Shown here in pieces: positions 16,941-64,000 of a stretch of DNA of 64,000 nt. Source of the DNA: Pseudogymnoascus verrucosus (Eukaryota); assembly GCA_001662655.1 (NCBI GenBank), contig KV460224.1. One strand, written 5' to 3'. The notes beneath the pieces are model-generated. The model saw nothing but the letters and a program-made list of their open reading frames with translations, searched no databases and was not told where the DNA came from. Each line of letters starts with the position of its first letter. Positions within the stretch are counted from its first letter, which is position 1. The position numbers and the translations under genes were made by a program.

Positions 16941-17994
16941 ATGAAAAGGGTAATTATTGAGATTAGTAGTGTAGGGGGACGGCGGTCGGCCAGCGTCGGG
17001 CAAGACGGATTGGTCGAAAGTGTGGGTAAATTACTCTGGGTTTTAGATGGGGAGATTGTTTTCTGTGTTCATTGCCTTGGGTTTGGCGTCTATTTCGATT
17101 ATATTTGCCATCTTTTGGGAGGAAGTTCCGATCCAAAACAAAAATTCCTTTGATGGAGATAACGCGAATAGAATCTCCTTTGTGGCAACTGCCATCGCTC
17201 GTCGTCGGTTCGTATCCTTTCCATTATATAAAAACTGTTACTGACGTCCCACTAGCGACATGCTATTACGTGAGAAGGGATACGGATTATATAAAAACGG
17301 TGGGCGAAAGGTTTAGAAAAGAAATTCAAGAGCAACGTCATTACTTTGGATGCAACAGTACAGGTGCAAACGTGTGGGCAATATCATCTCGTTCAATCGC
17401 TCGCATTTATATTTAACTCACAGTACAGATAGAGCTTGCTCACTCTACAGCCAAACAGGATTGACAAGAACTACTGCGCTCCTAATCCTTACTAGCACAT
17501 CGAAACAGTCGCGCTAGAGGAAATATTCCCCTATACTATTAAAAGCAGCTTCCTAGAATCCACATATTAATAGAGTTTGTGCATTAACCGCTTTCTTTAA
17601 AAATGGCGTCTCGTGAACTATAACCCCCTCTTTAGATAACACAACGACATGCTGACGGCAGTAGCTAGTAGAAAGGAGCAAGTTTGAATAGCAGGTTAGA
17701 TAAGCATTTTGCTAGGCTCTATCTTTCCATTTCACTAAAAAAAGCTTCTAACTTTGCCTAGGATTCCACAACCCCCACTTCTGCCATTTGCTCTCTTTCC
17801 CAACCGTTTGAATTGTGTTCGCGTAAAAGAATGCTCCTTACATCATAATTACTTTGCTAGAGACCATCTCTTCTACCTCTTTATATCTAAAGACTACTAT
17901 CATCTCTTAATCTATTCTCTTATAGTTATACGTTAAGCTAATCTAGTCTTTGCGTTCTAACATTATCTCTTTATAACACTTAATACATAGTATA

Positions 17995-18179
17995 ACGTAT
18001 TTCACAAGCGAATGAACAACCCAAGCGAGTGAACAACGGCAATTCTCACCAAAAACTGTGAAGTTTAGAGTGCTATATCTCAGCAACGCTGTTGTAATAA
18101 AATATGAAATTGTATATTTGGCCTTTTATAAGTTGTTAAAGTGTTTAATTTAATTTTTAAAACTATAATGCAAAACTAG
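17995..18179. mobile_element. Truncated end of a second Fot1-family element
   Basis: TA followed by ACGTATTTCAC terminus and two CAAGCGA(A/G)TGAACAAC sub-repeats; cut off by the element starting at 18182. Confidence 0.6.
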
Positions 18180-18181
18180 TA

Positions 18182-20021
18182 ACGTATTTCACGGGCGAGC
18201 GGGTCACACGAGCGAGCGGGTCACCAAAACACTAAAATTGACTATTACTGCCTACTACTACACCACCACCCTACATAATGACCCTTATTCGATCGTAATT
18301 GAATCCTTGTGCTTCTCGCACGTACGGGAATTATAGCCTATAATACCACATAAGCCACAGCGCTTCTGTCAGCCCTTAGAGCCTACCTGCCGACTACTCT
18401 CTCTTGCCACCTCTGTACGGACTTAAGCATCAGCCTCAGCACTGTGAAGTATATCCACTCCATCTCGTATAGAGAGACTACCCCCTTGCATTATACGTCT
18501 CTTACGCTTTCTTTCCCTTCTCTTTTTCTGTTCATTTGCTGCCTATAGAGCCTTAACTTCTACTTTAAGTAGAACAGCAGAATGCATCATAACTTGCGCC
18601 CCTTTAACAAGGCAGCTAATAGCATCATTAATTAAAGTAGGAGAGTTATTCTAATGTCTTATAACACGCTTCTTAATATGCTTTGTTTGAAAGTTAAGCT
18701 CCTTTATAGTTTAAGGAGTTTTTAAGGTCTAATTGTCGCTCTTAACTATTAGAGGAGTTAGAGTTCTTAAGTATAGATTTAAGTAAGAGAGAACATTCTA
18801 TAGTTTATATAGAACTAGCCCTATAGCTTAGAATCTGCTCTTAATGTTCTACTCTATAAATGTAGCTTTAAATGCTTCTTTAAATATAGAGAGGAACTTA
18901 AGCTTTATAATGTAGTTTAGCTAGTTTTATATAAAGGTTTTAATCTACTTTCTATATAAGAGCTTTAGTAGTGTAAAGTAGCTTACATTAAGAGGCTAAA
19001 GAATATATAACGAGTATAGTAGTATATAGAGGGTAATTATCTTCCGTTCTATATAGTAGTGTTAAAATTAAGTAGAGAGGTAGCTCTTATACCTATTAAG
19101 AATAAGAAGGCAATAGGTTCTAACTATACAAGCATTTGTATGTTAATTAAAGTGTTAAATCTACTTATACCTAATTAAATTTAAAGTCTACCTATTCTTA
19201 CTTAGTGTAATTACCTAGTCTTCTAGTAATCCTAAGTCCTTATACTAAGTAGAGAGGTAATTCTATGCTTTAAAAATAATAAATAGCAGAAGGGCCTATC
19301 TATACAAATTAACACCTTAGATAATTAACACTTACTCTCTATTCCCTAGCTATATAGTCTTTAGACAACTCTTTACTTCTAAGCTTATAACTACCTTTAT
19401 AGTAGCAATAACTCCTATTATAAAACCTGCTTTATTAAAGTTGTAGATATCTTGCTCTAAGATTCTATATTTTATAACTATGTTTTGTATAAAGGAGAAC
19501 TACCCTTTAATTATCTTAGGATCTTTACATTTTACTCGTTTATAGTTGTACTTCTAACTAAACTTTAATTTGATTTCTATATAACGCTTTATAAAGCTAG
19601 TAGCCTAGTTTATCCTAATAGGGCTTTTGCCTTGTTTAGAGAGTAGAAGGTCTGCTATTTCTTGTATAGCTTGTAGCTAGGGTAGAAACCTATGTGAATC
19701 TAGGTTAAGGATATATTAAACAAGAGCTGACTCTTCGTACAAAGTTAATTTTTGTAAGTTAGGAGTAGAGTTGCGTTAAGAAGTAACACCGTTAAGTTGT
19801 ACACAGAGCGACTTAAATAGGACGTTGTACAACATTGCAGCAGCTCGAATACTCTTAATATTGCCTTCTTTAAGTGCTATAATAGCCAATAGTATTCTAC
19901 CCTCTTAATTAGAGGATTGGTCTTGTGTTGGTTGTAGCATTGTTAACTATAGATAGGTTGACGCGTTTTAGTGTTTTAGTGACCCGCTCGCTCGTGTGAC
20001 CCGCTCGCCTGTGAAATACGT
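18182..20021 (-). mobile_element. Complete Fot1/pogo (Tc1-mariner) DNA transposon, 1840 bp, RIP-inactivated
   Basis: TIRs ACGTATTTCACGGGCGAGCGGGTCACACGAGCGAGCGGGTCAC / GTGACCCGCTCGCTCGTGTGACCCGCTCGCCTGTGAAATACGT; TA on both sides (18180-81, 20022-23); interior colinear with the DDE transposase copy at 62964-64000 but full of stops. Confidence 0.93.
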
Positions 20022-20114
20022 TAGCATATATACTTATACTAATGCTCTCGTCTTAGATGATAGCATTAAAGGATACTAATTTGCATCTTGAAATAAACCC
20101 CTACACAAACCTTA

Positions 20115-20186
20115 GATGAAAGTGAGTCTGATCTAAAGTGTGTTAGGATTGTGGCTAACACACTTTAGATCAGACTCACTTTCATC
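20115..20186. repeat. Perfect inverted repeat with 32 bp arms and an 8 nt loop
   Basis: GATGAAAGTGAGTCTGATCTAAAGTGTGTTAG gattgtgg CTAACACACTTTAGATCAGACTCACTTTCATC. Confidence 0.95.
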
Positions 20187-20650
20187 CTGCTCACAATTCG
20201 TACGTATATAGCTCAGAGCCCCAGAAGAAGGCAACTCCCCTAATTAAGGTAAGGAACTCGATATAACAGCCAAAGGCACAGTTGTAATGGATTCAGAAGC
20301 GGTGGCGGCTCTGATATTGTTGATATATCTGTTTCCGATTTTTCATCTCGTTCACAGAACACCTCTCGTTCACAGAAAAACATAACACTTGCACTGTAGA
20401 CACCTCTCTAGTGCAAGTATGGTAAACGGTACAGGAATATGGTGTCGTTAATCGTAGTATTTAGGTCCTTAGCATCAACCCATCCGTCAATCCATTAGTT
20501 GACTAGGCACCGAGAGCAGCGAAGATGGGGATGCAAGATAATTCTTCGAGTATTAATTTGCTATAGAAATCGAAGCAATATCTTGCATCCCCCCCACTCT
20601 CCTCCAGCCAAGCACACCACTATATGCCCACTAACACTCGAAGAATAGTC

Positions 20651-21114
20651 ACATACGACAATAGACTCAAGAGAACTAGGCATCTCTGTCGGAGATGGTC
20701 GCTGAATGCAACGACTTTCAGATTTCTATTGATGGAAACTTGATAACTAATTGCTGTATCACGTAACGGTTCTAAGGTTAATGTTGCTTTTATCTAACAA
20801 CACTAGCATACGAAACGGCTAAATGTACACGGCCATCGCAAAACGGGAAGATGCACAAGCTAGCGCTTTTTTCTAAAACAGCCTAAGTCATCACGTTTAC
20901 ATTTCAGACACAGTTGCAAAACACTCAGGAGCATGGCTTCGATGATTCCATGGTCGACAGGTCGTTGCAGGACCAACTTCTAGCTAGGGAACAGAGGCTC
21001 GAGAGTCAAACTCACCGAAAACAGCTTACACGTCCGCTCTGCTATACATAAGCTTGAGATCGGTGGATTTGTAGTTGGGTAGGTGACCACCAACGAATAC
21101 CCACTGTTGTATGT
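20651..21114 (+). pseudogene. 5S rRNA pseudogene split by a ~345 bp insertion at 5S nt 35/36
   Basis: 20651-20684 matches nt 1-34 and 21031-21114 matches nt 36-119 of the intact 5S at 25561; about 8 substitutions, half of them RIP-type; ends in a T tract. Confidence 0.92.
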
Positions 21115-21551
21115 TTTTGCTAATATTTTTTTACCTACGTGAACATGTGAATGATGATGCTCTGGACGAGAAAATGGCAATCGGGAGGCATAGAAGCGAC
21201 AAAGTAAGTGCTTGGGGGGACTTACAATGGACAGCGACGAATAGCAAGTACATGACACGGGGAAATTGCCCTCCGTAGCTTGACGGAGCTAGCAATTGAT
21301 CAATCTATTTGGCCTTGGAGATGGTTACTAACACTAACGGCACGATCGGAATGCTTGCCCATCTAGCGACTTCAAAAGTCATATATCTCCGGCGACGCTA
21401 CCAGTTTTCTGCACGGCCCCTTGTCAATTAAGCAATGGTGCATTATCTCAATGTTACTCAATATGAGTTTGTTTTATTTGCGATTTTGAGGGGTTATGGG
21501 GTACTTATAGGTGGGCTATTTCTCTGTATTGTGTTTCGGCTTGTTGCCTAG

Positions 21552-24599: not shown

Positions 24600-25115
24600 A
24601 ATAGAGGCCCCTTAAGTACCCTCTTAGGATCATGAGCCCGTCTATAGCTCGAAGCGCTAACTATTCAACGAGGGCTATGTACGTACTAATCCCACAACCT
24701 TGAACTCAGTCTTTACGCAGGCTAACTAAGGTAGGTTTCGTACCTTACCCCTATATTAGCAAACACTTTACTAATTCCCTACATAAGTGTCTCTAATCAT
24801 TAAAGATGACAGCGAAGGTAAAAGCAAGGATGAAGCTGAGGCTAGGCTTAGAGTCCTTAGGGTAGGCTAATCAACTATATATAAAGTAGGTGGCATAACT
24901 AGACTAGTAGTGCTGCTTCTATTATACTATAGCTTGCTTATGCACTTTAATAGACAGAGAAAACTAAGATAAGTATTACTTAGTAGCCTTTAGCTCCTTA
25001 GTGCCTTGTTAGTAGAGTAGGGAGAAGGTATTTAGTAATAGGGCTTCTAATTATATCTTATAGCTATAGATGTAGTAAGGTAGGAGACGATTGAACTTAA
25101 TATAACAGTAAAAAG
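24600..25115. repeat. RIP-degraded AT-rich repeat remnant
   Basis: TAG/TAA/CTA-rich, no ORFs. Confidence 0.5.
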
Positions 25116-25121
25116 CATAGT

Positions 25122-25419
25122 TGTAAGGACACAGGGCACCGTATCACGAGAAGTTGTATATGGGAGTGCAAGTCGGATATCAGTCGGTACAATCCTATAG
25201 GTCTACTACGAAGGATACAAAAAAGATAGAGATGTAACCCTCTATGGCTGTTTCCTTAAATACCCGAAACCGCTCCGACTCAGCTAACTCCCTGTTTGCC
25301 TAAGGCTTCCTTTCGCTATGTGCCTAAGGGTGTCGGTCGCGACTGCCCCGTAACGGCCCTGAGTCTCGATGGCGCCACATGACGGCCGTAACTAACCCGA
25401 GTCAGGAGGCATCCTTACA
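25122..25419. mobile_element. Solo LTR, 298 bp
   Basis: TGTAAGGA...TCCTTACA termini; 5-bp target-site duplication ATAGT (25117-21, 25420-24); the empty site is visible in the paralogous segment near 20278-20290. Confidence 0.88.
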
Positions 25420-25560
25420 ATAGTTGTAATAGACTTAGAGGTAGTAGCAGCTCTAATATTGTTTACATATCCGTTTCTAATTTCTCATCTCGTTCACAGA
25501 ACACTATAACTATTAGACTAAGCACACTACTATATATCCACCAACACTCGAAGAATAGTC

Positions 25561-25679
25561 ACATACGACCATAGACTCAAGAGAATTGGGCATCCCGTCC
25601 GCTCTGCCATACACAAGCTTGAGATCGGTGGATTAGTAGTTGGGTGGGTGACCACCAGCGAATACCCACTGTTGTATGT
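25561..25679 (+). rRNA. Dispersed 5S rRNA gene, intact
   Basis: ACATACGACCATAG...GTGACCACCAGCGAATACCCACTGTTGTATGT (119 nt), followed by a T-run Pol III terminator; TATATA about 30 nt upstream. Confidence 0.97.
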
Positions 25680-26113
25680 TTTTTTTCCGGTTCTTTTTTT
25701 GTCGCCCACCTACCTAGGATGGATAAGGAGGGAAGGGGAGGAAGGGAAGGGGGGAAAGGGAGGGATGTGGGCGTAGTGATATCTGGCACAACATTGTCTT
25801 GAACACCGCCTGAATGCGATTCTAGCTGTATAATTCTACGCCCTGGAAACAAGGCCTTGATAGTATTCCTAGTGTATCCTCCACACAAATACCCATCCAG
25901 GCGTTATGCCAACCGTGGACCCTCTTGAATATGAATTATGACACAGCAAAGTTTGTCTTGAAGACAATGGAAATGGATAATAAGAGCTTCTAGACTAGTA
26001 CATATACTTACTACGCTGCTTCTACAAAGTGACCCAACGCCACATGAACGCCCAACAACACACCTCTCCATGTCCCTCTATTCCTACAGCATAATGCCCC
26101 CGTCTCAGCAGCC

Positions 26114-35558: not shown

Positions 35559-35596
35559 NNNNNNNNNNNNNNNNNNNNNNNNNNNNNNNNNNNNNN
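35559..35596. other. Assembly gap
   Basis: Run of N. Confidence 1.
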
Positions 35597-62650: not shown

Positions 62651-62862
62651 GGAGTTGAAGTTTAACTGGAGGAATTAATCGTTACGTCCAGCCTCGGGAT
62701 GTGAAATGTTGGCTATATTTCCGAAATATGAGTACACCATACTTGAATGGTCCCGCTGTCGCTGCCCCTCCTCTTCTTCATTTCTCGACAACGGGAGCAT
62801 CTATTCCTAGCTGTCTAGGGTGAGGCAAAATTTATATAAGGAGACAAAACAAAATGACAAAA

Positions 62863-62881
62863 ACATACAACAGTGGGTATT
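62863..62881 (-). pseudogene. 5S rRNA 3' stub (nt 101-119) with T-run terminator
   Basis: ACATACAACAGTGGGTATT is the exact reverse complement of 25661-25679 and is preceded by an A run; identity stops abruptly at 62881. Confidence 0.8.
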
Positions 62882-62963
62882 ACTATTCCTAAGGCAACGT
62901 AGGTAGATACAGGCACTTACGCTACTACTATATTAGTTATTAGCTTTATTACCCTCCTTTATA

Positions 62964-64000
62964 ACGTATTTCACGTACGAGTGGGCCACACGGACGAGTG
63001 GGCCACGAAAACACCAAAATTGACTATTACTGCCTACTACTACACCACTACCCTACATAATGACCCTTATTCGATCGTAATTGAATCCTCGTGCCTCGTA
63101 CATGTACGGGAGTTATGGCCCATAATACCACATATGCCACAGCGCTTCTGTCGGCCTGTAGAACCCACCTGCCGACTACGCTCACTTGCCACCTCCGTAC
63201 GGACTTGAGCTTCTACCTCAGCACTCTGAAGCATATCCTCTCCCTCTCGTACGGAGAGACTGCCGCCTTGCATTATACGCCTCTTGCGCTTCCTTTCCCT
63301 CCTCTTTTTCTGTTCATTTGCTGCTTGTAGAGCCTTAACTTCTGCCTTGAGTAGAATAGCAGAATGCATCATAACCTAAGCTCCTTTGGCAAGCCGGCTT
63401 AGTGCGTCATTAATTGAGGTAGGAGAGCTATTCTGATGTTGTATAACACGGTTCTTAATATGCTCTGTCTAGAAATCAAGCTCCCTTATAGTTTGAGGAG
63501 TCTTTGAAGTCTAATTGTTACTCTCAACTATAGGAGGAGTTGGAGTTCTTAAGTGTAGATTTAAGTGAGAGAGGACACTCTGTGGCTCGTACGGAACTAG
63601 CCCTGTAGCTCGGAATCCGCTCTTAATGTTCTGCTCTGTAAATGTAGCTTTAAATGCTTCTTTAAATGCAGAGAGGAACTCAAGCTTTGTAATGTGGTTT
63701 AGCTGGTTCCGTACGAAGGTTTCAATCTGCTTTCCGTACGAAAGCTTTAGTAGTGCAAAGCAGCTTACATCAAGAGGCTGAAGAATGTGTGATGAGTGTG
63801 GTGGCATACAGAGCGTGATTATCTTCCGTTCTGTGTAGTAGTGCTGAAATTGAGCAGAGAGGTAGCTCTCATGTCCGTCGAGAATAAGAAGGCAATAGGT
63901 TCCGACTATACGAGCATTTGTATGCTGATCGAAGTGTTGAATCCACTTATACCTAATTGAATTTGAAGTCCACCTATTCTCACTTAGTGTAATCACCTAG
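62964..64000 (-). mobile_element. Fot1/pogo DNA transposon with DDE transposase pseudogene, running off the window
   Basis: TA plus ACGTATTTCAC TIR with ACGAGTGGGCCAC sub-repeats; LLILDGHESY, PPHSSHILQPLDV, C-terminal CGICGIMGHNSRTC knuckle; in-frame stops present. Confidence 0.93.

Follow-up and report, generated by a model that had tools for sequence, protein, structure and literature searches.

One 5S rRNA gene in the DNA analyzed here, a stretch of 64,000 nt (the window), is split by an insert, and this insert is very probably a copy, deleted in situ, of a long element that integrates site-specifically into 5S genes. We slightly favor the view that the parent element was of the Starship tyrosine-recombinase type. 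The parts of the split gene and the intact gene used for comparison are as follows.

20651..20686, + strand: left half of the 5S pseudogene, corresponding to 5S nt 1-36 by alignment to 25561-25680; 4 changes relative to the intact paralogue
20687-21030: insert between the 5S halves, 344 bp, starting with TGTCGG and ending with CTTACA
21031/21032..21115, + strand: right half of the 5S pseudogene, corresponding to nt 36/37-120; 5 changes relative to the intact paralogue
21116-21120: T-run terminator of the split 5S unit, directly after the right half
25561-25680, + strand: intact paralogous 5S gene, matching Rfam RF00001 with 74.2 bits (gathering score 38)

Rfam recognized only one intact 5S gene in the window, at 25561-25680, and this gene was taken as the uninterrupted reference for the target site, with the motif CCCGTCC at its nt 34-40. 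Its letters agree with the majority of 5S contigs, for example at 20676, 20678, 21070, and 21081. BLAST comparison of the split with the intact gene gave 91% identity over nt 1-34 (E 2e-08) and 94% over nt 36-120 (E 2e-33). An earlier description made from the letters of the window (the sequence-only reading) had held that both halves of the gene are essentially intact, and the alignment bears this out: nt 1-36 lie to the left and nt 36/37-120 to the right of the insert, both halves are complete, and no 5S sequence was lost at the break. The insert had been put at about 345 bp with TG..CA ends and was measured as 344 bp, TGTCGG...CTTACA. As proposed, the duplication is at most 1 nt, since only a single C (nt 36) can be assigned to either flank, which leaves a duplication of 0-1 nt. 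The contrast drawn with a nearby LTR at 25122 also holds, as this solo LTR (25122-25419, 298 bp, TGTAAGG...CCTTACA) is bordered on both sides by a 5-bp target-site duplication, ATAGT, at 25117-25121 and 25420-25424.

When the split 5S was scored as one unit against RF00001, it reached 17.2 bits (E 1.6), below the threshold of 38, and this copy is a dead pseudogene. It differs from the intact gene at 9 of 120 positions, six of the nine being C-to-T or G-to-A changes in the split copy. In the left part of the insert, 6 of the 8 listed differences show T or A in the window against C or G in other copies, while in the right part all 8 listed differences are of the opposite kind, with T or A in the other copies. 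The mutation pattern is consistent with repeat-induced point mutation of both a repeated element and the 5S sequence flanking it.

The insert is single-copy in the window. A permissive Rfam search of 20200-21300 assigned no RNA family to it, the matches being weak hairpin matches on a palindrome at 20527-20592 and the sub-threshold 5S. Its single-strand fold shows no special structure (z-score -0.04), its open reading frames of 30-58 aa are unremarkable, and the 344-bp remnant is without coding capacity. The two termini have only TGT/ACA in common, with no clear terminal inverted repeat. Subterminal inverted matches are present in permuted order (20686-20698 with 20948-20960, and 20707-20715 with 20961-20969); a perfect match of this kind of 9 nt was attained in 28 of 1000 shuffles and is thus mildly unusual. 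A degenerate CCCGTC-like repeat can be read at both insert junctions and is not significant.

To follow the insert outside the window, contigs of four public runs (X1, X2, X3, and X5; about 31-33 million letters of contigs each) were aligned to 20200-21400 at a likeness of at least 80%. Sampled words of 20280-21400 were present at 97% in X1, which may be the window's own sample, at 90% in X2, and at 15% in X3 and X5, which carry other organism labels. The results below refer to the 32 listed of 492 pieces and to the 24 listed of 171 loose ends. In these genomes the insert falls into two parts.

20687..20869: left terminal part of the insert, 183 bp, starting with TGTCGG; multi-copy in the four related genomes and joined there to 5S nt 1-36
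20867..20872: internal deletion joint in a T6 run; alignments of the left type extend up to 20869 and those of the right type from 20867 on, with a 3-nt TTT overlap
20870..21030: right terminal part of the insert, 161 bp, ending with CTTACA; low-copy in the related genomes, with other sequence before it there

The left 183 bp were found in several diverged contigs in each of the four genomes. Summed contig depth over 20692-20855 in X1 was 1887-2517, while flanking single-copy bins had about 200-230, summed depth not being equal to copy number. The corresponding values for the left part and the flanking bins, read in the same way, were 188-439 and 35-46 (X2), 34-58 and about 10 (X3), and 133-220 and about 31-35 (X5). 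A letter other than that of the window was carried at position 20719 by 7, 6, 5, and 5 contigs, and at position 20778 by 8, 4, 3, and 3 contigs (X1, X2, X3, and X5, respectively).

The sequence-only reading would have been contradicted by a single-copy insert with no other 5S gene broken at this position. This was looked for in the four genomes and the opposite was seen: 11 of the 32 listed pieces (3, 13, 18-22, and 26-29), all from other loci, cross the junction 20686|20687. Four of them (18, 26, 27, and 28) bridge it strictly, with at least 31 letters on both sides, while piece 3 has 30 letters on the 5S side, six pieces have 17-26, and piece 13 has 8. In the junction pieces, similarity to this locus sets in at 20641-20670, where the 5S gene starts or a little upstream of it. 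The different sequence that they have further upstream speaks for distinct 5S loci and against copies of a single duplicated block. On the inner side, the other copies continue past 20869 into a common sequence that is absent from this locus (loose ends in 4, 3, and 4 contigs of X1, X3, and X5), and a 30-letter continuation seen there was not found in the window. Left-end copies run inward for at least a further 3.6, 3.9, and 4.8 kb (pieces 21, 28, and 26). Several left-end pieces end early, at about 20760-20764.

The right part (20867-21030) is rarer, with one extra contig at 20905 in each of X1, X3, and X5 and none in X2. Contigs with the right part number 1-3 against 5-8 with the left part, and the left excess is seen in all four genomes. 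The right end is joined to the right half of a 5S gene in piece 23 (X3) and piece 31 (X5), both covering 20867-21060, with 1742 and 443 further letters, respectively, on the inner side. In these two genomes the right end lies beside an apparently orthologous flank (pieces 23/24 and 31/32), the two pieces being in separate contigs. Piece 8 of X1 covers 20867-21030 and stops at 21030, its 697 further letters not lying on the 5S right half, and piece 13 of X2 has 190 unaligned letters ahead of its 8 letters on the 5S side; these two may be copies outside 5S genes. Uninterrupted 5S sequence in the related genomes was seen in paralogous genes only (joints 20684 to 21031).

The joined 344-bp form occurs in both X1 and X2, where, among the 32 listed pieces, it is bridged only by contigs of its own locus, piece 7 of X1 (0 differences) and piece 14 of X2 (2 differences). 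The joint in the T6 run is the picture expected of an internal deletion at microhomology, and the bridging at its own locus only, together with the TTT overlap, points to a copy that collapsed in situ. The demonstrated length of the other copies is at least 3.6-4.8 kb, a lower bound, against 344 bp here. The sequence-only reading had offered a small non-autonomous or a collapsed 5S-targeting element. As other copies are kilobases long and the 344-bp form was met at this locus only, the second of these descriptions fits and an element moving as such a small unit does not.

We therefore propose the following course of events, in which each step is conditional. In a lineage close to Pseudogymnoascus, a long mobile element would target 5S rRNA genes and integrate specifically between their nt 36 and 37, and a full-size copy would have entered this 5S gene. 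Later, nearly its whole interior would have been deleted in place, with the joint in a short T run, so that of the two termini 183 bp (left) and 161 bp (right) would remain, and the locus would then have gained C-to-T and G-to-A changes of the repeat-induced point mutation kind. Integration that is precise, recurs at a single position in a conserved gene, and leaves no staggered-cut duplication suggests conservative site-specific recombination, most likely by a tyrosine recombinase of the Starship (captain, DUF3435) type encoded by the element. Such an enzyme would recognize a short core in the conserved 5S sequence and would act without a staggered-cut duplication. The type of recombinase is something that we infer. 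No DUF3435 gene was found among the 63 scanned of the 98 window open reading frames of at least 110 aa. The same scan gave no reverse transcriptase, and its only transposase was a DDE_1 reading frame of an unrelated pogo-like element.

That some Starships insert into 5S rDNA, as the sequence-only reading had stated, is in print: of the curated Starship sites, 23% are in 5S rDNA, distributed over no fewer than five distinct positions (PMC11162782). In that survey, the Arwing family uses a CCCG/GGGC core, Fusarium Starships have the manually curated direct repeat CCCGTC (supplement S1; examples are Ffuj_Starship1 and Foxy5176_Starship2, Gluck-Thaler and Vogan 2024), and many predicted Starships carry (T)CCCGTC(C) (supplement S7). 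One captain of the CCCGTC-type Fusarium Starships, fusequ2_tyr5478, belongs to fam09, that is, Arwing (PMC11162782 S4, Table 1), and the supplement also lists a Lasallia element with an insertion-site string that equals the antisense of this 5S region. The split at nt 36|37 falls inside CCCGTC, in the middle of the CCCGTCC at nt 34-40, which is a 5S site of the Arwing type. As for the host, a Sec62 reading frame of the window shows 98, 95, and 95% identity to proteins from three Pseudogymnoascus strains, with further matches in other Leotiomycetes; judged by these similarities, the host lies within Pezizomycotina, close to Pseudogymnoascus, as is expected of a Starship host. For Pseudogymnoascus, 11-33 Starship recombinase (captain) genes per genome and 0 delimited elements are given among nine genome rows (PMC11162782 S8). 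The recombinase families fam01, fam04, and fam06 are listed for one strain (S4), and fam06, Enterprise, belongs to the three families with the strongest ties to 5S (PMC11162782).

The Fusarium CCCGTC Starships share with the present case the insertion place in 5S, a Pezizomycotina host, the inactivation of the 5S gene entered, and the lack of a staggered-cut duplication (PMC11162782). They differ in that the insert here is 344 bp without a gene, in a Leotiomycete, with no captain linked to its ends and a certain repeat of at most 1 nt against 6-7 bp. This last difference, a certain duplication of no more than 1 nt where the Fusarium elements have 6-7 bp direct repeats at the same site, is a point against the collapsed Starship. 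The 8- and 7-letter end words of the insert were not found among the direct-repeat and terminal-inverted-repeat strings of the part of the PMC11162782 supplement that was compared. Enterprise-family Starships that target 5S, such as Osiris of Aspergillus fumigatus (PMC12153272), always enter and fragment a 5S copy and are present in several copies per genome, as here, and the same is true of Voyager of Macrophomina phaseolina (PMC9156397). Unlike here, these elements measure 37-138 kb or more and have direct repeats longer than 6 bp (PMC12153272, PMC9156397), and Voyager sits 20 bp from the 5S start rather than at nt 36 (PMC9156397).

Among other explanations, an element of a few kb with a tyrosine recombinase that is not of the Starship kind, for example Crypton-like, could have used the same 5S core and collapsed by deletion. 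The site-specific signature without duplication is common to both readings, an element of 4-6 kb would satisfy the known length of the other copies, and there are several copies per genome, more than is usual for one Starship family. Yet Starship recombinase genes are abundant in Pseudogymnoascus, the exact site is a documented Starship site, and we know of no Crypton that targets 5S genes, so that we consider such an element unlikely.

The left excess is another point against a collapsed Starship, as antisense retroelements truncated at the 5' end would also give it. An R2-like, site-specific non-LTR retrotransposon antisense to 5S would have its constant 3' end at the left junction and would lose right ends by 5' truncation; more contigs carry the left end than the right end in each of the four genomes, and several pieces of the left end break off at about 20760-20764. 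Site-specific non-LTR elements often lack a regular target duplication as well. What makes this origin distinctly unlikely in our view is that the left junction has no A-rich or simple-repeat tail, nor is there a tail at either junction, and that truncation should join variable inner points to the 5S right half, whereas the listed pieces continue inward for kilobases. We know of no element of this kind in Pezizomycotina.

The recurrent junction could instead go back to one ancient insertion into a 5S gene, with the broken gene then spread by duplication or gene conversion, in which case it would not stem from site-specific integration. 5S units in this DNA do duplicate with their flanks, the split and the intact unit having about 170 bp of upstream sequence in common, and in filamentous fungi 5S families undergo birth-and-death evolution and include many pseudogenes (PMC5555474). 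Against this stands the match of the junction contigs, which begins only at 20641-20670 while the upstream sequence differs; duplication would need to start at the gene start each time, and we regard such a spread as improbable.

A miniature non-autonomous element that transposes as a 344-bp unit, with the recombinase supplied in trans, would explain why both termini are kept; it would also be in keeping with the subterminal inverted match, a perfect one of 9 nt that only 28 of 1000 shuffles attained. There is also a precedent in an engineered mini-Hephaestus, which was excised when its captain was supplied in trans (Urquhart et al. 2023, PMC10104507). Like the remnant, mini-Hephaestus is a two-ended Starship miniature without a working captain, but it was made in the laboratory, whereas the remnant is a natural deletion, mutated, and without a sign of having moved (PMC10104507; bioRxiv 10.64898/2026.09.21.753150). 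A circular intermediate, which joins the right end to the left end, has been reported for Hephaestus (bioRxiv 10.64898/2026.09.21.753150). Our literature search for natural miniature Starships or Pseudogymnoascus Starships, which covered sources other than subscription journals, found only engineered minis and one review. Since the internal joint was bridged by own-locus contigs only (pieces 7 and 14 of the 32 listed), no second joined copy appeared among the listed pieces from four genomes, and the insert is unique in the window, a mobile 344-bp unit is quite improbable.

The TG...CA ends, the typical size, and a true solo LTR with a CTTACA end 4 kb away would fit a solo LTR of an ordinary LTR retrotransposon, but this is very improbable given a duplication of at most 1 nt instead of 4-6 bp although both 5S halves are complete (the neighboring solo LTR has 5 bp), left and right parts that separate at 20869 in other copies and differ in contig number where an LTR would appear as a whole unit at both ends, and the lack of similarity between the insert and the neighboring LTR. 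A Helitron was rejected as its ends and site do not fit, and an intron or RNA-level insert was rejected as the insert matches copies that continue as kilobase-long DNA elsewhere.

Returning to the collapsed 5S-specific element, 5S genes are a favored landing site of giant fungal transposons, and for Pseudogymnoascus recombinase genes have so far been counted while no element borders were given (PMC11162782 S8). The relic provides both termini and the exact target, and with them a handle for extracting full-length copies from long-read assemblies, after which the cargo of such elements can be asked about in Pseudogymnoascus. This genus includes the agent of bat white-nose disease. The finding, at a site already known for Starships, is a useful handle on undelimited Pseudogymnoascus elements and not a surprise to a specialist. 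More tentatively, the termini and the nt 36|37 site may define an undelimited 5S-specific element family in Pseudogymnoascus and its relatives, either a Starship lineage with almost no direct repeat or a different 5S-homing element, with the 344-bp remnant as a natural miniature still open to mobilization in trans by a resident recombinase; we think this unlikely.

The relic also illustrates how an element can decay by internal deletion to a few hundred bases, and some of the "truncated" or split 5S pseudogenes of fungi may be scars of such elements. In Aspergillus nidulans, conserved sequence blocks lie behind 5S pseudogene halves. The 5S families of filamentous fungi show birth-and-death evolution with many pseudogenes (Rooney and Ward 2005 as cited in PMC5555474), and the truncated 5S pseudogenes of filamentous ascomycetes resemble the present one in belonging to dispersed families with many dead, truncated copies, but differ from it in that the present one lacks neither half and its break has an identifiable cause (PMC5555474).

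A further observation concerns other 5S copies in the related genomes. In all four, some copies start at nt 55-57 (21050-21052) with conserved non-5S sequence before them (2-4 contigs per genome). This looks like a second recurrent 5S breakpoint and is possibly the end of another 5S-targeting element. In X1 and X2, single contigs run from 21118-21133 (the 5S 3' end) back to 20644-21052 (the 5S start or nt 55-57), so that at other places in these genomes whole and partial 5S copies may lie in tandem or close to one another. Scans of metagenome contigs with the left-end pattern and with the 5S/left-end junction pattern gave no match, a result that is not informative on absence elsewhere.

The two 5S units of the window are paralogues with about 170 bp of common upstream flank.

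20254..20650, + strand: upstream flank of the split unit, in part common to the intact 5S unit

Within this flank, 20254-20362 is homologous to 25093-25116 plus 25420-25504, and 20610-20650 is homologous to 25520-25560. The solo LTR sits in the upstream flank of the intact 5S gene, and the split unit has no LTR at the paralogous site (about 20273-20279), from which it follows that the LTR arrived after the two 5S units had diverged. Between the homologous segments, the split unit has about 247 bp of extra DNA (20363-20609) against about 15 bp in the intact unit. The first letters of this extra DNA repeat, in diverged form, the 14 nt that precede them (TCTCGTTCACAGAA), and the extra DNA also includes a palindrome made of two 23-nt arms (20527-20549 and 20570-20592, 91%).

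Just upstream of the split unit lies a pogo/Fot1-like DNA transposon, an AT-rich gutted copy at 18180-20023 with 58-nt terminal inverted repeats (97%), and between it and the 5S unit there is a perfect hairpin at 20115-20186 (32-nt arms, 100% complementary, 8-nt loop), a putative MITE-like or foldback remnant. An older, mutated end fragment of the pogo/Fot1-like kind is present at 17984-18038, and a second copy runs from 62962 to 64000 (300 nt, 87% identical) with the DDE_1 transposase reading frame at 63514-63996 on the - strand. At a distance of 80 bp from the start of this second copy, an isolated 5S 3' fragment on the - strand (62846-62881) comprises about nt 100-120, the T-run, and 17 nt of downstream flank, and matches the split unit with 89% identity over 37 nt. 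At 35559-35596, a run of 38 N marks an assembly gap or a masked stretch. Otherwise, the window carries genes for a PDR-type ABC transporter, a GH10 xylanase with a fungal CBM1, a Zn2Cys6 factor, and a NACHT-WD40 protein, together with housekeeping genes.
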